NCBI GenBank assembly: GCA_027355945.1
Contig: DAIEHA010000001.1
Span: 3,390 to 67,389, forward strand
Length of the DNA: 64,000 nucleotides
Direction of reading: 5' to 3'
DNA from: Candidatus Parcubacteria bacterium
Lineage (GTDB): Bacteria; Patescibacteriota; Minisyncoccia; UBA6257; 2-01-FULL-56-20
This document shows, piece after piece, positions 2,504 through 30,942 of the stretch (position 1 is the first letter of the stretch; every line of letters begins with the position of its first letter). Position numbers and translations under genes: made by a program. Below the pieces are notes generated by a model, which searched no databases, was not told the DNA's origin, and saw nothing but the letters and a program-made list of their open reading frames with translations.

Positions 2504-5122
2504 ATGAATCGATTGCAGATCGTCTCGGAAAACGCACCGGCGGGAGATCAGCCGAAGGCCATCGGAGAGCTTGTCCAGGGACTGGAGCGCGGCTACCGCG
2601 ACCAGACCCTTCTTGGCGTCACGGGTTCGGGCAAGACGTTCACCGTTGCGAACGTGATCAAGGAGGTGCAGCGGCCGACGCTCGTCATCGCACATAACAA
2701 GACCCTCGCCGCACAGCTTTGCAACGAGTTCAGGGAGCTCTTTCCGAACAACTCGGTGAACTATTTCGTCTCGTATTACGATTATTACCAACCGGAGGCA
2801 TACATTCCCTCGAGCGACACCTATATCGACAAAGAGGCGCTCATCAACGACGAGATCGATAAGTTGCGTCATGCGGCGACGACCGCGCTCCTCACGCGCC
2901 GCGACGTGATCATCGTGGCATCCGTATCGTGCATCTACGGCCTCGGCGCGCCGGAGGTCTATGCCCAGAACATCTTCCACTTCAAGGTGGGCGATACGAT
3001 CGAACGGAAGGATTTCTCGCGGCGGCTCGTCGAGCTGCAGTTCTCGCGGACCAATGCCGATCTCAAAAGGGGAACGTACCGCCTGCGTGGGGAGAATTGG
3101 GAGATCATGCCGGCCGATCGCGAGGTGATCTACAATCTTGAGGTGAGCGGCGGCATCATCCGCACCATTTACGAGGTCGATCCCGTGGTCGGCTTCCGTC
3201 CCGGCAGGACGCCCGCGGTACCCGATGTGATCTTCGCGCCCGCCAAGCATTTCATCACGGAAGCGCCCGAGCGCGAGCGCGCGATCAAGGCGATCCAGAA
3301 AGAACTGAAGGAGCAATTGAAGAAGTTCGAGGAGGAGAAGAAGTTCCTGGAAGCGGAACGGATCGAGCGGCGCACCAAGTTCGATCTCGCGATGATGCGC
3401 GAGGTCGGATATTGCCATGGCATCGAGAACTACTCCCGGCATCTCTCGGGCCGCAAGGCCGGGGAACCGCCGGCCACGCTCCTCGATTATTTTCCGCACA
3501 AAGAGGATGGCACGCCGGATTTCCTTACCGTGATCGACGAATCGCATATGACGGTACCGCAACTCCAGGGGATGTTCAACGGCGATGCCGCGCGCAAGGA
3601 GACGCTCGTGGAATTCGGCTTCCGTTTGCCGTCCGCGAAGGATAATCGCCCGCTCCGCTTCGAGGAATTCCGGGAGCGCATCGGGCAGACCATTTATGTG
3701 TCCGCCACGCCGGGGCCGTATGAGGCAGAAAAGAGCGATCCTGCGCGCCACGGGGGCGTGGGGCAGATCGTGGAGCAGATCATCCGTCCGACCGGACTCG
3801 TGGATCCCAAAACGACCATCATTCCCGCCCGGGGCCAGGTGGAGGACCTCATTCCGCGTATCGAGGCGCGGGTGGCGAAGCACGACCGCGTGCTCGTGAC
3901 AACGCTCACGAAGCGCATGGCCGAAGACCTTTCGGCGTATCTCGAGGAGCGGAAGATAAAGGTGAACTATCTCCATAGCGATGTGAAGACGCTGGACCGC
4001 ATCAAGATCCTCACCGATCTCCGCCGCGGCAAGATCGAGGTGCTCGTCGGGGTGAACCTCCTGCGCGAAGGTCTCGACCTGCCCGAGGTGTCGCTCGTCG
4101 CCATTCTTGATGCCGACAAGGAGGGATTCCTGCGGAGTGAGGTGTCGCTCATCCAGACGATCGGCCGCGCGGCACGCAACGCCGAGGGGGAGGTGCTCAT
4201 CTACGCCGACCGCATCACGGGCTCCATCGAACGCGCGCTCAAGGAGACCGATCGCCGCCGTGCGATCCAGGTCGCATACAACAAAGAGCACGGCATCACG
4301 CCGCGCACCATCATAAAGAAGATCACTGACATCCTGCCGAACGTGGATGAGATCCTGAACATGGAGATGGCTCCGGTGCCGCGTTCGAAGACCGCGATCG
4401 AGAAGATGATCGCGCAGAAGGAACGCGAGATGCGCACGGCGGCGAAGGCGCTTGATTTCGAGCTTGCGGGAATCCTGCGTGACGAGATCAAGGAGCTCAG
4501 GAGGAAAGTATCGGAGAGCGGGATGGACGGCGCGCCGGCGCCGAAGCGCAAGGAGGAGGTGTCTGCGAAGAAGACGCCGTCTTCGCGCGCGAAGGGATAT
4601 GCTGCGATCCCTTTGCTCCTCATGGTCTTTTTCGGGGGCGCCGCGCTTCTTGGGGGTCTCTGGGCGCTCATGCCTCCCGTGTCCGTGCAGGCACCCGCCG
4701 CACCGGTATCGGGGATCCCGCCGGGAAATACTCCTTCAGGGACCGGTGCGTCCTCTTCGTCGGAACTGCCCTTCCGTGCGATCCCTTACGCGAATAGTTA
4801 TCCGGTGATCGGGCCGCGGGGCACCTTGGTCACCGTGCGTGCCCACGGCATCGTGCTCGCACCCACAAGCACCGTCGAGTTCGGGGGCCTTGCGGGGGCC
4901 GTCGTGGAATCGGTGGCGGGGGATGGGAGCAGATTGACATTCATCGTGCCTGGCATGCTCGGGCCGGTCTGCCGTGCGCACGAACCCTGTTCCATGTTCC
5001 GGAGGGTCGTCGTGAGCGGGACCTACGATGTGACGGTCGTGACGGACGGCATCGATGTGTCCGCGGGATCGTTCACGGTGACAGGGGCTGCAGCGACTCC
5101 TTCGGTGACGCCCATGCTCTGA
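2504..5122 (+). CDS. uvrB: Excinuclease ABC subunit B with ~206-aa in-frame C-terminal extension (TM helix + Ig/IPT-like domain)
   Basis: [46 protein letters not shown]...; helicase motifs and the UVR domain [27 protein letters not shown] end near 4503. The same frame stays open to 5122 through [24 protein letters not shown] and a beta-rich S/T/G domain. Confidence 0.85.
4427..4452. repeat. 26-nt stretch identical to 8752-8777 (UVR-domain coding segment shared by uvrB and uvrC)
   Basis: gagatgcgcacggcggcgaaggcgct appears in both genes and encodes EMRTAAKAL in both. Confidence 0.8.
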
Positions 5123-5251: not shown

Positions 5252-7813
5252 ATGCCGCAGCACGATAAGATCGTCATCAAAGGCGCCCGAGAGCACAATC
5301 TGAAAAATATCGATCTTGAGATCCCGAGGGATAAGATGGTCGTCTTCACCGGCCTTTCGGGTTCCGGAAAATCGTCGCTTGCGTTCGACACGATATTCGC
5401 CGAAGGGCAGCGGCGGTACATCGAATCGCTGTCCGCCTATGCGCGGCAGTTCCTCGGCCGTCTCGACAAGCCCGATGTGGACGACATCGAGGGACTTTCA
5501 CCCGCGATCTCGATCGATCAGAAATCGCATTCCGCGAACCCGCGTTCCACGGTGGCAACGATCACGGAGATCTACGATTATCTCCGCGTGCTCTTCGCGC
5601 GCGCAGGCACGCCGTTCTGCCCGACCTGCGGACGCGAGATCAAGAAGCTGACGAACGAGGAGATCGTGGATATCGCGATCGACATCGCGAAGGAGAATGC
5701 GGGGCCGAAGGGCGCGCACAAGAACCTTCTCGTCCTTGCGCCCGTCGTGCGGGGCAGGAAGGGGGAATATTACCAGATGCTCTACGATTTCCTGAACGCC
5801 GGGTTCAGCGAGGTGCGCATCGACGGCAAATATCATTCGCTCCGCGAACGCGTGGATCTCGGCCGCTATAAGACGCACGACATCGATCTCGTGATCGACC
5901 GCATTCCCGCGGGAATGGACTTCAAGGACAAAGATAACCGGCTCCGCCTCTCCGAGGCGATCGAGAGCGGCCTCAAGTACGGCAACGCGGTCGTCACGAT
6001 CATCACCGACAGGGAGGTGTCGCTCTCGGCGAAGTTCACATGTCCGCACGACGGGTTTTCCTTTCCGGAGATCGAACCGCGCCTTTTCTCGTTCAACAGT
6101 CCGTATGGTGCGTGTCCGGAATGCCATGGCCTCGGTACGAAGGACCTCTGGTCCGAGGAGCTTTGTACGGTGTGCGAGGGCAAGCGCCTGCGCGTGGAGG
6201 CGCTCAACGTCCTCGTCAAGGACAAGAACATCAATACGGTCGCCCAGCTTTCCATCGAGGACGCCCATGCGTTCTTTTCCTCGCTCGCATTCAAGGAGGC
6301 CTCGAAGAACGACGTCGCCGAGGCGCCGCTTCGCGAGATCAAAAGCCGCCTGAAGTTCATGATGGACGTAGGTCTCGAATATCTCACGCTCGATCGCAAG
6401 GCCGGCACGCTCTCCGGCGGCGAGGCGCAGCGCATACGGCTTGCATCGCAGATCGGTTCACGGCTCGTGGGCACGCTTTACATCCTCGATGAGCCCACAA
6501 TCGGCCTCCATCAGCGCGACAACGACAAGCTCATCCATACGCTCCTCGAACTCCGCGATCTCGGCAACACGATCATCGTCGTCGAACACGACGAGGATAC
6601 GATCCGGGCGTCCGATTATCTGGTGGACATCGGTCCGGGCGCGGGCGTGCACGGCGGCAATGTCGTGGCGGCCGGTCCTATCCCGCAGATCCTGAACGAT
6701 ACGAAGCAGCGATCGCTCACACTCGATTATCTTCGCGGCAAGCAGTTCATCGCCGTGCCGGACGAGCGGCGCAGCGTGGTGCTCGTGGACGATAAAAAGA
6801 AGGGGAGCGGCGCACAGGAAGCGATCAAGGTCCGTGGCGCGCATGCCAACAATCTGAAGGACGTCGACGTCGATATCCCGTTGCGCCGCTTCACGTGCGT
6901 CACTGGCGTGTCGGGCAGCGGCAAATCGTCGCTCGTGTATGACGTGCTCTACAAAGCGGTCGCCGACAAGCTGAATCATGCGAACTATAAGGTTGGCGGC
7001 TATAAGTCGCTCATGGGCCTCGAGTACATCAATCGCATCATCAACATCGACCAGTCGCCGATCGGCCGTACGCCGCGTTCCAATCCGGCGACGTATGTGG
7101 GCGCATGGACGCATATTCGCGATCTTTTCGCATCGACCGAGGATGCGCGCGTGCGCGGCTACAAACCCGGTCGTTTCAGCTTCAACGTGCCCGGCGGACG
7201 GTGCGAGAACTGCGAGGGCCATGGCACGATCGCGATAGAGATGCATTTCCTTCCCACGGTGTACGTATCGTGCGATATATGCAAAGGCAAACGCTTCGAC
7301 CGCGAGACGCTCGAAGTGGAGTATAAGGGCAAGAGCATCTACGACGTGCTCCAGATGACGATCGAAGAGGCGGCGAAGTTCTTCGGAGACATCCCATGGC
7401 TCGAGGATAAGCTCTCCATCCTCGAAGAGGTGGGGCTCGGATACCTGGAACTCGGCCAATCGGCGACGACGCTCTCCGGCGGCGAGGCGCAGCGCATCAA
7501 GCTTGCCGCCGAGCTTGGGAAGCGCGATACGCACCGCACGCTGTATCTTCTGGATGAACCCACCACGGGATTGCATTTTGCGGACATCGATCAGCTGCTC
7601 AAGGTGCTTCAGCGCCTCGTGGACCGCGGCAATACCGTTGTCGTCATCGAGCACAATCTCGACGTGATCAAGACCGCTGATTGGGTGATCGATCTCGGTC
7701 CCGAAGGCGGCGCCCGCGGAGGGACCATCGTCGCGACCGGGACCCCCGAGGAGATCGTTCGCAAGAAGGAGAGCTATACCGGACAATATCTCCGCAAGGT
7801 CCTCGAGAGATAA
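5252..7813 (+). CDS. uvrA: Excinuclease ABC subunit A
   Basis: [56 protein letters not shown]..., two ABC ATPase modules, zinc fingers [16 protein letters not shown], 853 aa. Confidence 0.92.
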
Positions 7814-7833: not shown

Positions 7834-8115
7834 ATGGTACGCATCGCAGACGGGAAGATCTATCATTACGACCGGAAGATAGGATGGCTCGAGGGGCAGC
7901 ACGTCCATAACGAGGAGGACGGGAAGGTACTTGGATATTGGGAGAACGAAAGCGTCTATGGCGCAGGCGGGCACAGGATCGCATACATCCATGAGGATGA
8001 TTTTGTGTACGCAAGCGGCCGCGTGGCAGGATCGCTCGAGCACATCAACGAGCAGATCCACGGAGGTGCATCCATCCTCGCAAAGTGCGCGGTGAAAGTG
8101 CTGTTCGACCTGTGA
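7834..8115 (+). CDS. Hypothetical small protein between uvrA and uvrC
   Basis: 93 aa ORF MVRIADGKIYHYDRKIGWLEGQHVHNEEDGKVLGYWENESVYGAGGHRIAY..., beta-rich with repeated G/Y motifs; no family recognised. Confidence 0.4.
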   Translation: MVRIADGKIYHYDRKIGWLEGQHVHNEEDGKVLGYWENESVYGAGGHRIAYIHEDDFVYASGRVAGSLEHINEQIHGGASILAKCAVKVLFDL

Positions 8116-8124
8116 CAGACCCTT

Positions 8125-9384
8125 ATGGCAAAGACGGATATCGCTTATAAGAAATTCCCGGAGACGCCGGGCGTATACGTGATGAAGGATGCGGAGGGGA
8201 GTGTGCTGTACGTGGGGAAGGCGGCGAACCTTCGCCGGCGGGTCTCGAGCTACTTCGAGCGTCCCCATGACATCCGCATCCAGACGCTCGTGGGCCGGAT
8301 TGCGAAGATAGACATCCACCGGACCGATACCGCGCTCGAAGCGCTCATCCTGGAAGCGGAACTCATCAAAAAGCTCAGGCCGCCTTTCAATGTGCGCGAG
8401 AAGGATGACAAGAGCTTCCTTTACGTGGAGATCGAATCGCGCGAACGGTTCCCGCGGGTGATGCTCGTGCGCGGCAAGGACGCGGAGCGAGGGCGCCGGT
8501 ATGGGCCGTTCACGTCGGCTTCGTCGGCGCGGGAGGCGATGCGCATCTTGCGCCGCATCTTCCCGTGGAACGAGCATGCGCCGGATGCGGTCGGAAGGAT
8601 GGCGCGGCCGTGTTTCGATTACGAGGTCGGTCTGTGCCCGGGAACGTGCATCGGCGCGGTGACGCACGGCGACTATATGGCGCACACGGTGGCCCCCCTC
8701 AGGATGTTTTTCGAAGGCGGGAAGAAGCGCGTACTCGTGACGTTCGAAAAGGAGATGCGCACGGCGGCGAAGGCGCTCGATTTTGAAATGGCGGAAACGC
8801 TGCGTCGGCGGATCTTCGCGCTGAAGCACGTGCAGGACAGTACGCTGATCTCGGAATCGGAGGTGCTTCTTCCGGCGGCCGGCCCCGCCGCGGAGGCAGG
8901 TGCACGGCAAGCCCCGTACCGCATCGAGGGATATGATATATCGAACATTTCAGGGACCTCCTCCGTCGGTTCCATGGTGGTATTCGAGGGAGGGGAGCCG
9001 AACAAGGACGAATACCGCAAATTCAAAATCAGGAGCGTTTCCGGACCGAACGACGTGGGCATGCTTACCGAGGTTCTCGAGCGGCGGTTCGCGCCGACGC
9101 ACCGGGGGGTCGAGGCGGGGAAAGGAGGATGGCGGATGCCGGACCTCGTTCTGATCGATGGCGGTCTTGCGCAGGCGAATGCGGCGAAAAAGGTGCTCCT
9201 CCGGGCGGGATTGCGCATTCCGGTGCTTGGCATCGCAAAAGGGCCGGAACGGAAGCGTAACGACATCATCGGCGCGATGCCGAAAGGCGTTCGCAAAGAG
9301 ACGCTCGTGCGCGTGCGGGATGAAGCGCATAGGTTTGCGATCGGCTATCACAAAGCGCTTCGCCGCGTGCGGACATTCCAGTGA
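8125..9384 (+). CDS. uvrC: Excinuclease ABC subunit C, short form lacking C-terminal HhH domain
   Basis: GIY-YIG N-terminus (GVYVMKDAEGSVLYVGKAANLRRRVSSYF), UVR domain ([21 protein letters not shown]) and RNase-H-like endonuclease domain (YRIEGYDISNISG). It is 419 aa, against about 600 for canonical UvrC. Confidence 0.85.
   Translation: MAKTDIAYKKFPETPGVYVMKDAEGSVLYVGKAANLRRRVSSYFERPHDIRIQTLVGRIAKIDIHRTDTALEALILEAELIKKLRPPFNVREKDDKSFLYVEIESRERFPRVMLVRGKDAERGRRYGPFTSASSAREAMRILRRIFPWNEHAPDAVGRMARPCFDYEVGLCPGTCIGAVTHGDYMAHTVAPLRMFFEGGKKRVLVTFEKEMRTAAKALDFEMAETLRRRIFALKHVQDSTLISESEVLLPAAGPAAEAGARQAPYRIEGYDISNISGTSSVGSMVVFEGGEPNKDEYRKFKIRSVSGPNDVGMLTEVLERRFAPTHRGVEAGKGGWRMPDLVLIDGGLAQANAAKKVLLRAGLRIPVLGIAKGPERKRNDIIGAMPKGVRKETLVRVRDEAHRFAIGYHKALRRVRTFQ
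8752..8777. repeat. Second copy of 26-nt UVR-domain repeat (see 4427-4452)
   Basis: Identical 26-mer read directly from the sequence. Confidence 0.8.
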
Positions 9385-28820: not shown

Positions 28821-28907
28821 ATATACAAAGCGGAAGGGGAGAGATTCGAACTCTCGAGGCCCTTGCGAGCCTGCCGCATTTCGAGTGCGGTGCCTTCGAC
28901 CACTCAG
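28821..28907 (-). tRNA. tRNA-Ser (anticodon CGA), long variable arm, no encoded CCA
   Basis: Reverse strand GGAAGGGTGGCTGAGTGGTCGAAGGCACCGCACTCGAAATGCGGCAGGCTCGCAAGGGCCTCGAGAGTTCGAATCTCTCCCCTTCCG. Anticodon loop CUCGAAA, 7-bp acceptor stem, T-loop TTCGAAT. Confidence 0.85.
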
Positions 28908-28987
28908 CCACCCTTCCGCTTTGTATACGTACGATCCTCTGCGCGATACCCTAATGAGATTAAACGAACCATCCGGGAAATTCAAGA

Positions 28988-29023
28988 ACGGAAAGAAAAG
29001 CGCGCCACAGGGGAGTGGCGCGC
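28988..29023 (-). terminator. Rho-independent terminator for minus-strand gene 29055-29444
   Basis: Perfect stem GCGCGCCAC (loop agggga) GTGGCGCGC, followed on the minus strand by a CTTTTCTTTCC run. Confidence 0.65.
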
Positions 29024-29054
29024 GGTGGGAAAAGGGTAATCCGACGGGTTCCGA

Positions 29055-29444
29055 TCAATGGATATGAGGGGACCCATGGGAAAGGAGCAAGATGTACTTT
29101 TCCGAAGCGCCTCCGCATGCGAGGCATTTCACGCATGTCGTCGCATGTTGCCGGACGACGGCATAGTCGTTGCGGACCTCTGCTGGGGACGGTAGGAAGG
29201 CATTGAACGGATCGGATGCGGCGTGCGTCCGTTCCGCGATGATGAGCTTCCTAAGGGCGGAGAAACTTAGTGTTCCGGCGTAGAACGCACGAACCTTCTC
29301 GAGAAGATTCGCGTCGGCCGTGCATACGAAGGATGATGCGGGTGTCGCAATCGTGCCAGTGGGGGTTTTCATCCTGGGAAAATTGAAGGGAACGAGCATC
29401 CCTTCCCGGACAGCGTAGCGGATATCTGTCATCTTGATCATCAT
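29055..29444 (-). CDS. Hypothetical protein
   Basis: 129 aa ORF with its own downstream terminator; contains CVKCLACGG; no family recognised. Confidence 0.4.
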   Translation of the reverse strand: MMIKMTDIRYAVREGMLVPFNFPRMKTPTGTIATPASSFVCTADANLLEKVRAFYAGTLSFSALRKLIIAERTHAASDPFNAFLPSPAEVRNDYAVVRQHATTCVKCLACGGASEKYILLLSHGSPHIH

Positions 29445-29542
29445 TTTTACCCTGATGGTTGGAATGGCCCGTCGGCCTCGGGAGGCCTGCAGGCGGCTAA
29501 TGAATAGAATACAACATTTTATGAAAAATGCAAAGGTCGCGG

Positions 29543-29614
29543 TGCCCTCGGGAAGAATCGAACTCCCATTTTGCCCTTAGGACGGGCCAGTTCTATCCAT
29601 TGAACTACGAGGGC
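29543..29614 (-). tRNA. tRNA-Arg (anticodon CCT), no encoded CCA
   Basis: Reverse strand GCCCTCGTAGTTCAATGGATAGAACTGGCCCGTCCTAAGGGCAAAATGGGAGTTCGATTCTTCCCGAGGGCA. Cloverleaf with anticodon loop GUCCUAA. Confidence 0.8.
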
Positions 29615-29663
29615 TTTGCCTCTATACTATAGACGGCGCGGAAAGGTATGGCAATCGCGATCC

Positions 29664-29734
29664 GGGCTCATAGTAAAATGGTATTACGCCTCCATGGCAT
29701 GGAGGAGGTCGGGGTTCGATTCCCCGTGGGTCCA
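29664..29734 (+). tRNA. tRNA-Ala (anticodon GGC) with G3:U70 identity pair, no encoded CCA
   Basis: GGGCTCATAGTAAAATGGTATTACGCCTCCATGGCATGGAGGAGGTCGGGGTTCGATTCCCCGTGGGTCCA; anticodon loop AUGGCAU. Confidence 0.85.
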
Positions 29735-29738
29735 CACG

Positions 29739-29825
29739 GGTGGGGTGGCCGAGCGGTTTAAGGCGGCAGTCTTGAAAACTGCTGTACTCGAAAGGGTACC
29801 GTGAGTTCGAATCTCACCCCCACCG
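29739..29825 (+). tRNA. tRNA-Ser (anticodon TGA), long variable arm, no encoded CCA
   Basis: GGTGGGGTGGCCGAGCGGTTTAAGGCGGCAGTCTTGAAAACTGCTGTACTCGAAAGGGTACCGTGAGTTCGAATCTCACCCCCACCG; anticodon loop CUUGAAA. Confidence 0.85.
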
Positions 29826-29918
29826 CAGCAGCGGACAGTACTGCAAGATTTGCATGAAAAGCAGAAAGTGGCTTATGTTCCCGCTCCAGTGCATAGCGCG
29901 GCTTGATGGGCCGCACGA

Positions 29919-30680
29919 TCAAAACCCGAAGAGCAATTTAATCGCAAGGACCCCTCCGATGAATATGAACAGCCATTTGATGAACTTATTCCCTTTGCCT
30001 TTCGCGTATTTTGAACCGATATGCGCGCCCGCCACCGATCCCGCTGCTGCAAGGATCATCATCGGCACGTCATAATATCCTCGCAGGATGAACAGTATTG
30101 CCGCAAAGAGCGCCCACGAGAAGGAAACGAGATAGTAGTGGGCGAGGCCGTCGATGAAATCGAAGCCATTGGTATAGAAGGTGAGTGTGGTGAACAAGAT
30201 GCCATTTCCCGATCCAAATACCGTCTCATAGAATCCGAGGATGAGGGCGAACGGGTACGCGATAGCTTGCCGGGCGCGAGAATACGTATGCCGCTCGCGC
30301 AAACCGAGGTTCTTCTTGAGATACGTATAGGTGACGAGCGCCAGGATGATGATGCCCACGAAGACAGCAAGGGTCCTTTGATCGATGCTCGTCACAAGGA
30401 CGACGCCGAGGTAGGTTCCTATGAGCCCTATGATCGAAAATATGCCGACGAGTTCCCAGCGGACGGTTCTGCCTTTCAGATAATTCCTTGCTGCGGGCAA
30501 TACCCACGCAACGGAATTGACGGAGGAGATCGCCGCGACGAGCGGATACGGGATCCCCATAGAAAGAAGCGCGGGGAAGACGATGATCCCTGCGCCGCCG
30601 CCGGACATCGAGCTCAAAAGCGCTGCAATAAATGCGATGGCGCAAATGAGAAGATCCCTCATAGGCTTATTATAATCCAT
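29919..30680 (-). CDS. TauE/SafE-family (DUF81) membrane transporter
   Basis: Polytopic membrane protein with Gly-rich repeated halves (MSGGGAGIIVFP..., GFYETVFGSGNGILF). Start taken at MDYNKPMRDLL (ATG 30680). Confidence 0.7.
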   Translation of the reverse strand: MDYNKPMRDLLICAIAFIAALLSSMSGGGAGIIVFPALLSMGIPYPLVAAISSVNSVAWVLPAARNYLKGRTVRWELVGIFSIIGLIGTYLGVVLVTSIDQRTLAVFVGIIILALVTYTYLKKNLGLRERHTYSRARQAIAYPFALILGFYETVFGSGNGILFTTLTFYTNGFDFIDGLAHYYLVSFSWALFAAILFILRGYYDVPMMILAAAGSVAGAHIGSKYAKGKGNKFIKWLFIFIGGVLAIKLLFGF

Positions 30681-30839
30681 CTCCACAAAAAACCTTCGAC
30701 CGCGATGCGGCGTCCTATCCGGGGTGAAAAGGGATATTCGTTGCATGCAATGGATCATGACGTCCCGCAGGAAGCCCCCGCGTTTGCATAAGCCTCGTGT
30801 TTTGGGTATATTTTTCTGGACGGTGATATGCCGTGCGGC

Positions 30840-30912
30840 GCCACCTTAGCTCAGCTGGTAGAGCAGTGCTTTCGTAAAGCAAAGGTCCCCGGTTCGAATC
30901 CGGGAGGTGGCT
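30840..30912 (+). tRNA. tRNA-Thr (anticodon CGT), no encoded CCA
   Basis: GCCACCTTAGCTCAGCTGGTAGAGCAGTGCTTTCGTAAAGCAAAGGTCCCCGGTTCGAATCCGGGAGGTGGCT; anticodon loop UUCGUAA. Confidence 0.85.
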
Positions 30913-30942
30913 CAAAGAAAGGGAAAAGGGTACGATATCCGT

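Follow-up and report, generated by a model that had tools for sequence, protein, structure and literature searches.

UvrB is among the most uniform of bacterial proteins: soluble, cytoplasmic and recruited to DNA lesions from solution. How, then, could a uvrB reading frame come to run without interruption into a transmembrane (TM) helix and an Ig-like domain, and is such a gene real? The question is raised by a 64,000-nucleotide stretch of a Candidatus Parcubacteria genome (assembly GCA_027355945.1, contig DAIEHA010000001.1, positions 3,390 to 67,389), referred to below as the window, whose numbering is used throughout. On its + strand an uninterrupted open reading frame (ORF) extends from a TTG at 2399 to a TGA at 5120-5122. 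Read from the ATG at 2504 (MNRLQIV...), it encodes 872 amino acids, the first 667 of which form a UvrB core. The initial annotation, made from the sequence alone, had offered a genuine lineage-specific fusion, a lost stop codon or an assembly error as explanations. The evidence presented here speaks against an assembly error and for a combination of the other two, a lineage-specific fusion which arose by loss of a stop codon. The gene is an inherited fusion of uvrB with a small TM-IPT gene. We consider it probable that this is a tolerated merger of operon neighbours, which would tether UvrB at the membrane.

A complete UvrB with an in-frame extension

The likely start of uvrB is the ATG at 2504 rather than the TTG at 2399, because a promoter-like site lies just upstream of it (TTGCCG-17-TATAAT, 2466-2494, + strand; 10 of 12 positions in a consensus scan, and a consensus match only) and because the same start was chosen in the gene calls of other assemblies. 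The core, residues 1-667 (2504-4504, + strand), comprises the helicase domains, the UvrA-interaction domain, the UvrB motif and the UVR domain. It scored 981.1 bits against the NCBIfam equivalog NF003673 (cutoff 743), residues 4-667 covering profile positions 2-652 of 653, and 961 bits against the equivalog TIGR00631 (cutoff 750). The Pfam domains ResIII, UvrB_inter, Helicase_C, UvrB and UVR all exceeded their gathering scores in the fused protein. With both equivalog matches, the full set of five domains, and uvrA and uvrC following on the same strand, residues 1-667 are to be regarded, by sequence criteria, as a complete UvrB.

The UVR domain occupies residues 633-667 and ends at position 4504. 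As the initial annotation had stated, the frame passes this point without a stop. That annotation had the extension begin at 4504 and run for about 206 codons; 4504 is, however, the last base of codon 667, and the in-frame extension, which itself stands, starts at 4505 and comprises 205 codons (4505-5119). Translation begun at 4504, out of frame by one base, meets a stop. The chance of about 205 stop-free codons at a G+C content of about 65% is roughly 0.005, as estimated from base composition. Because so long a run is improbable, and because the extension independently matches free-standing proteins (best E = 1.9e-33), it is best read as coding sequence and not as an accidental open frame.

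The extension begins with a basic, fast-evolving linker (residues 668-698; 4505-4597, + strand). It is followed by a single TM helix (residues 699-723; 4598-4672, + strand), predicted to be oriented N-in/C-out on the grounds of hydropathy, charge distribution, an AlphaFold model and alignment with the N-terminal signal-anchor of free-standing homologues. The 19-residue Kyte-Doolittle mean of this helix, 2.17, is the highest of the protein, the next best segment reaching 1.58. Four Lys or Arg residues are found among the preceding 15 positions and none among the following 15, so that the extension shows the one hydrophobic helix and the positively charged cytoplasmic flank of a single-pass N-in/C-out protein. 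In the AlphaFold model the segment is helical at model residues 6-27. The helix quoted in the initial annotation was recovered at residues 700-723, behind the basic linker as described there. Next comes a Pro/Ser/Thr/Gly-rich stalk (residues 724-759; 4673-4780, + strand), which is predicted to be disordered (predicted local distance difference test, pLDDT, 56-66) and aligns to variable S/T/P-rich linkers of the homologues. The predicted Ig-like beta-sandwich of IPT/TIG type covers approximately residues 760-861 (4781-5086, + strand), a stretch rich in beta-formers, and contains the cysteines Cys823 (4970-4972) and Cys829 (4988-4990), a pair which is invariant in the family. A short tail (residues 862-872) and the TGA complete the gene (5087-5122, + strand). 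No second copy of the IPT module was present in the 64-kb window.

The extension resembles small membrane-anchored IPT/TIG proteins

An exhaustive HMMER search with the extension through 1.8 billion representatives retrieved 160 relatives. Residue 4 of the best relative, P0121 (197 amino acids, E = 1.9e-33), aligns to residue 29 of the extension, which places the TM helix opposite the N-terminal signal-anchor of a small protein with a gene of its own. In the majority of relatives, which are 145-200 amino acids long, the N-terminus is short and basic (often M..RKGF) and leads into one TM helix, an S/T/P stalk and then a domain of about 100 residues, in which a Cys-x5-Cys pair is invariant throughout the free-standing family. 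The other relatives are multi-repeat proteins. Some members of the family carry the NCBI name 'IPT/TIG domain-containing protein [Candidatus Paceibacterota]', P0282 being an example. Less sensitive searches missed the family. A word-indexed protein search with the 205-residue extension gave no match although the database holds P0002, its orthologue in a second lineage (see below), which marks a limit of sensitivity and does not make the extension an orphan. Locus searches with the single extension protein found no match in genome or metagenome contigs, and with alignment A1 they found none in genome contigs and only L008 and L009 in metagenome contigs.

The Ig/IPT-like nature of the beta domain, proposed from the letters alone, is upheld by the homologues and the predicted fold, though not by the direct Pfam search that had been suggested: residues 668-872 matched no Pfam or NCBIfam model at E <= 1, the TIG model included. 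Among the homologues, PF01833 was matched by 27 of the 53 aligned family members at E <= 0.01 (best 4.1e-10), and P0122, which possesses four repeats and a peptidoglycan-binding domain, matched TIG at 1.5e-38. The extension matched proteins of this group with E values between 1e-33 and 1e-10. The AlphaFold model, calculated on the family alignment, shows a beta-sandwich with a pLDDT of 88-97. Its top Foldseek matches in the PDB were the IPT domain of MET, the IPT/TIG domains of EBF1 and EBF3, the plexin IPT domain, the TIG domain of CAMTA1 and domain D of CGTase, with a probability of 1.00 and modest E values of about 1e-3; the TM-score to the EBF1 IPT domain was 0.67, normalised to the target. 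CGTase domain D also appeared in a PDB sequence search at E ~0.02, in agreement with an IPT/E-set fold. The residues G, G, P, C and C, invariant in the family, are all kept in the proteins of both fused lineages. Since the Pfam TIG model has no direct match here, the assignment rests on homologues and predicted fold, and by this transitive homology the domain belongs to the IPT/TIG family. A likeness to TAL effectors, which ranked first when the domain profile was searched against PDB sequences (E = 2.5e-6), was rejected as a sum of individually insignificant repeat matches.

The signal-anchors of the homologues, the lipoprotein lipobox which P0301 has in place of the signal-anchor motif, the conserved Cys pair and the peptidoglycan-binding domain of P0122 indicate that the TM-IPT domain is extracytoplasmic, as far as this can be read from sequence. 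The family signal-anchor itself has a recurrent form. In 23 of the 53 members of alignment A3 the protein starts M-x(2-5)-[KR]-G-[FILM]-[AST]-P-[IL] and continues into a helix whose last residues are GGVFYY; the motif is pilin-like in look but has no Glu+5. A class III (type IV pilin-like) signal was considered and rejected, as [KR]G[FILMYV] occurs in just 23 of the 53 members, Glu+5 in none, and PF07963 is not matched. A prepilin-peptidase cut between RAKG and Y, which would free UvrB, was rejected in the same way (no Glu+5, no N_methyl match, motif absent from 30 of 53). A signal peptidase I cut after VQA was also discarded: the site lies on the far side of the membrane and has Pro at +1 in both lineages, and Pro in this position blocks the enzyme.

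The fusion is reproduced in separate assemblies and in a second lineage

The exact 872-residue protein is encoded on three contigs of the collection. Two of these belong to separate ENA assemblies, ERZ27236853 and ERZ27236847, whose DNA differs from the window by 0 mismatches in 10,122 nt and by 1 in 6,064 nt, respectively. The junction is identical base for base in separate assemblies from different samples. The inspection of other assemblies for a stop codon or an indel near the junction, which the initial annotation had recommended, thus revealed neither, and the fusion was intact.

An orthologue of 894 amino acids, P0002, is encoded on locus L003 (GCA_027325345.1). It keeps the fusion in frame and aligns with the window protein over the full length. 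The gene order of L003 is that of the window: HSP20, PrsW, a tRNA synthetase, a small gene, TGT, the uvrB fusion, uvrA, a gene of 93 codons, and uvrC. Both proteins have the junction ...AKGYAAIPL..., the TM helix, the domain and the C-terminal ...PML, and P0331 and P0330, near-identical variants of P0002, have the same C-terminus. A comparison of the window with L003 gave a synonymous divergence (dS) of 0.67 for the UvrB core and a ratio of nonsynonymous to synonymous divergence (dN/dS) of 0.07. The ratio was 0.20 for the TM helix (Fisher p = 0.005), 0.41 for the IPT domain (Fisher p = 0.001; 78% amino acid identity) and 0.33 for the linker. From the TM helix to the C-terminal end taken together, dN was lower than dS with a Fisher p of 1.7e-7. 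Both halves of the fusion are under purifying selection, and the fusion is present in the DNA and has been retained over a dS of about 0.67. Damage verification, ATPase activity and loading by UvrA are the activities that define a UvrB; the value of 0.07 argues that the core is functional. The linker behaves differently from its surroundings. It is only 32% identical between the two proteins and 22 codons longer in P0002; in other words, it has been almost wholly replaced between the lineages, yet it has stayed in frame.

The linkers also differ in character. That of L003 (approximately 8020-8150 of that locus) is an Ala/Lys/Pro repeat, AKAAAKAASAKAAAKDPAKTPAVKAAKAKPAKTKPAKAK, while that of the window is basic and not repetitive. 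The L003 linker is similar to the histone-H1-like tails that certain nucleoid proteins of bacteria carry, tracts which are known to bind DNA. Among the variants, P0330 deserves separate mention. This protein of 774 amino acids, encoded on an 8.2-kb ENA contig, shares its whole extension with P0002 (100% identity), and its core is 95.4% identical to P0001 of the window lineage and 96.6% to P0002. It represents either a third strain, a recombinant or a chimeric contig from co-occurring populations.

Among the 120 closest UvrB clusters, the fusion was found in just two lineages. Their UvrA proteins are 96.5% identical to each other and 93-94.5% identical to those of unfused relatives, and an ABC-transporter gene which is present in the unfused loci L004 and L006 is absent from both. 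Because the junction AKGYAAIPL, the absence of this gene and the most similar UvrA are common to both lineages, the data point to a single fusion event in their common ancestor.

Separate genes in relatives reveal the origin of the fusion

It had been proposed that relatives with separate uvrB and small downstream genes would identify the fusion as artefactual. Such relatives exist (L006, L008, L010 and L012), but this rule proved invalid, because they show the source of the fusion and not an artefact. In L006/L007 uvrB ends ...GESIIAAALEKKGRRKST-TGA, and the gene for P0121 starts 30 nt further on (ATG ACG GGA AGA AAA GGA TTT), followed by an ABC transporter and uvrA. In L008 uvrB ends ...GERIVAEALKRRKVGK-TGA; a TM-IPT gene for 202 amino acids begins 48 nt on and is itself followed by uvrA. 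The order uvrB, a spacer of 35-36 nt, TM-IPT gene, uvrA is found in L010 and L012/L013. In L014 and L009 the TM-IPT gene is directly followed either by uvrA or by an ABC transporter with uvrA behind it. In L014 it stands three genes away from uvrB, and the 370 nt available upstream of it in L009 contain no uvrB, which makes that locus uninformative on adjacency. L004/L005 have no TM-IPT gene but keep uvrB, uvrA and the 93-codon gene.

Among the unfused relatives, L006 has the IPT protein closest to the extension, with 58-61% identity in the IPT domain and 54% along the entire HMMER match. In this locus uvrB and the P0121 gene lie in the same frame and their 30-nt spacer has no in-frame stop. 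Therefore a single substitution in the TGA would yield a fusion of the kind seen in the window. The junction of the unfused relatives reads ...GE.II..AL.KK.. and a stop, a spacer of 30-48 nt and an ATG. In the fused protein the linker takes the place of the uvrB tail, the stop codon, the spacer and the start codon of the neighbour. At the position of the ancestral ATG the codons are TCT TCG in the window and CCC GCA in L003, and since the ATG is absent from both fused lineages the module can no longer be started at its former site. Taken together, these gene comparisons trace the fusion to a stop codon that was lost between uvrB and its small neighbour, which encoded a TM-IPT surface protein.

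The tail that the linker replaces has features of its own. In unfused close relatives UvrB carries a basic tail of 30-70 residues after the UVR domain, which ends with the motif [RS]-[ST]-G-[ED]-x-I-[IV]-x-[AE]-A-L-x-[KR]-[KR]-[KG], for example RTGERIIAEALKRRKVR (seen in P0003, P0004, P0005 and P0006, at L006 1786-1915 and at L008 540-704). Neither the two fused lineages nor more distant UvrBs such as P0012 have this motif, which could form a short helix, amphipathic or basic, for binding DNA, the membrane or a partner.

A probable tolerated merger of neighbouring genes

From these observations a course of events can be sketched. The order in related Paceibacterota is uvrB, a signal-anchored IPT/TIG gene, uvrA, the 93-codon gene and uvrC. 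In the common ancestor of the window and L003 organisms the uvrB stop, the spacer of 30-50 nt and the ATG of the small gene would have been lost; one substitution would have sufficed for the fusion itself, deletions and turnover in the linker coming afterwards. The ORF would now be translated as a single chain, whose TM helix would insert N-in/C-out and whose IPT domain would be exported like that of the free-standing relatives. This arrangement would leave a complete UvrB on the cytoplasmic side, moored to the membrane by a flexible, lysine-rich linker of 31 residues (roughly 11 nm at full extension) or, in L003, about 50. Loading by UvrA and recruitment of UvrC might remain possible for a UvrB tethered in this way; the interaction with UvrC is not in itself threatened by a C-terminal addition, because relatives tolerate basic tails of about 20-70 residues. 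Outside the cytoplasm the IPT domain would go on as before, each half retaining its old job. Very small cells are reported for this phylum, and in cells of such a size a large part of the DNA is near the membrane, which makes a tethered UvrB plausible. Most likely the fusion is neutral or mildly beneficial and does not represent a new repair mechanism.

Several points weigh against this account. The dN/dS of the IPT domain is far above that of the core, and constraint on the domain may have relaxed after the fusion. With only two lineages fused, retention could be partly historical accident. The UvrB cores of the fused lineages are 93.3% identical to each other and 92.4-94.4% identical to those of L004 and L006; the core is too conserved for its identities alone to settle whether the fused lineages are sisters. 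Translation as a single chain, and the persistence of that chain, are inferred from sequence, and a second, canonical uvrB may lie outside the visible 64 kb. Finally, UvrB of Escherichia coli searches by three-dimensional diffusion and UvrA shows no recruitment to the membrane (PMC5007444). Given such a search in solution, tethering might be costly.

Alternative explanations

That the fusion is an artefact of assembly, binning or sequencing (a missed stop, an indel or a chimeric join) is hardly credible. It is true that the data are metagenome-assembled and that P0330 resembles a mix of both lineages, so that some strain mixing has occurred in these assemblies. Against this, separate assemblies agree across the junction, a second lineage at a dS of 0.67, with a linker of another length, keeps the frame as well, the genes on either side of the junction stand in the order native to the relatives, and neither the ancestral uvrB tail nor the start of the small gene is encoded in any other frame of the linker. 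A more serious, though still rather unlikely, alternative is that the DNA is fused but two proteins are delivered, either from an internal start in the linker or after a protease cut that releases soluble UvrB. The linker does contain potential in-frame starts with Shine-Dalgarno (SD)-like tracts. An ATG at 4523 (M674, GGAGAG-4 nt-ATG) has such a tract 5-10 nt upstream, and so has a GTG at 4559 (V686, AAGGAGGAG-GTG); L003 has a GTG at V673. The linker is moreover the fastest-evolving and least ordered part of the protein, as would be expected of a protease-accessible spacer, and a UvrB with a remnant of the linker would be quite normal in a clade where relatives have basic tails of 20-70 residues. 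However, each of the two orthologous genes has about 12 combinations of an SD-like tract and a start, because the codons for Lys, Arg and Glu are purine-rich, and the linker sites do not exceed this background. They are at non-homologous positions in the two lineages. A scan of the linker revealed no promoter-like or terminator-like site, and no known cleavage motif is present. Even if an internal start were used, the ribosomes coming from uvrB would read on and the full-length tethered product would still be made.

At the opposite extreme, the fusion might be adaptive: the TM-IPT protein would be an accessory of UvrABC, for instance a membrane anchor for excision repair, and the fusion a 'Rosetta-stone' record of their partnership. 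Here the argument starts from the position of the small gene, which is found inside the uvr cluster across lineages whose UvrBs are 82-84% identical and whose IPT proteins are only 35-40% identical. In L014 it adjoins uvrA despite the three genes between it and uvrB. The fusion has been kept under purifying selection, and the Ala/Lys/Pro-rich linker of L003 has a histone-H1-like appearance. But the cytoplasmic part of the free-standing members amounts to 3-6 residues (M..RKG), which is too short for binding UvrB. The close relative L004/L005 keeps uvrB, uvrA and the 93-codon gene without the small gene, the genomes compared are closely related, so that gene order may be a matter of simple inheritance, and a literature search produced no membrane-anchored UvrB. 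We therefore consider an adaptive partnership improbable. The same low standing applies to its wider form, in which excision repair in these bacteria of the candidate phyla radiation (CPR) is membrane-organised, with the TM-IPT protein as a dedicated Uvr partner and the fusion as its fixed form; the evidence for it consists of the conserved gene order and the fusion itself. If true, it would provide the first membrane-anchored UvrB and possibly a link between events at the envelope or surface and DNA repair.

Other genes of the cluster and further features of the window

The gene following the fusion is uvrA (5252-7813, + strand), identified as an ORF with a UvrA_inter gene call and by its identity with the L003 UvrA given above. 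uvrC (8125-9384, + strand) is an ORF with the domains GIY-YIG, UvrC_M and UvrC_RNaseH_dom. Between them lies the 93-codon gene (7834-8115, + strand), which is conserved in L003, L004, L012 and L014. In the four related loci that cover this stretch, genes for 91-93 amino acids are located between uvrA and uvrC at 11401-11682 of L003, 12676-12957 of L004, 8156-8431 of L012 and 8211-8489 of L014, with 43-90% identity. The product has sub-threshold Pfam matches to beta-flower domains (Bflower_2, E = 7.9e-5; Bflower, E = 1.2e-3). It is a second small gene unrelated to nucleotide excision repair within the uvr cluster of this clade.

Upstream of TGT, an ORF of 121 codons (719-1084, + strand) has a product whose N-terminus is rich in Cys (CACPEGCACSCGC) and whose tail is rich in Gly and Tyr (GYGGYGYGYDGSGYGG), besides one hydrophobic helix. 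Pfam gave no match; a gene for 111-121 amino acids was called at the matching position in L001, L003 and L004. Five tRNA genes (Ser-CGA, Arg-CCT, Ala-GGC, Ser-TGA and Thr-CGT) are crowded on both strands within 2.1 kb (28830-30913). An Rfam scan of the window brought no family except tRNA above threshold.

Comparison with known systems and significance

With canonical UvrB, as defined by NF003673 and TIGR00631, the window protein has in common the equivalog status, all domains, the uvrA and uvrC partners and strong purifying selection. Canonical UvrB is soluble and ends at or soon after the UVR domain, whereas the window protein adds 205 residues with a predicted TM helix and extracytoplasmic Ig-like domain. 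The extension in turn shares its module and its position between uvrB and uvrA with the free-standing IPT/TIG proteins of Paceibacterota such as P0121 and P0282. These have a gene of their own with an ATG and 145-200 codons; in the window 698 residues precede the TM helix, and ATG, spacer and stop are gone.

That a membrane-anchored protein can act on the chromosome is familiar from regulators of the ToxR/CadC type, whose cytoplasmic DNA-binding domain reaches the DNA from the membrane. The window protein is predicted to have the same bitopic N-in/C-out topology, but this is an analogy only. ToxR and CadC are transcription regulators with a signal-sensing outer domain; they have no relation to the window protein in sequence or fold, and there is no sign that the IPT domain regulates UvrB. 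For the excision repair proteins themselves, Lin, Kovalsky and Grossman reported in 1997, as cited in PMC5007444, that Uvr proteins of E. coli associate with the inner membrane in an ultraviolet-dependent manner. According to that citation the report concerned the fractionation of soluble proteins and involved no covalent anchor, unlike the fusion in the window. The association was not seen by single-molecule imaging (PMC5007444). In the literature we found no earlier suggestion of membrane-sited excision repair other than the 1997 report, and a full-text search turned up no UvrB described as having a transmembrane extension.

In UvrB-TM-IPT a known enzyme has a domain architecture that is new, found in two uncultivated lineages of Paceibacterota. 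The simplest reading is a tolerated fusion of neighbouring genes, not a new function. The case illustrates a route by which fusions can arise, namely from operon neighbours that lie in the same frame one stop codon apart, and it cautions that odd fusions in metagenome-assembled genomes are not automatically artefacts. Should the protein be made as a single chain, a helicase tethered to the membrane can support full excision repair, which would be informative about how little distance separates DNA and membrane in ultra-small CPR cells.

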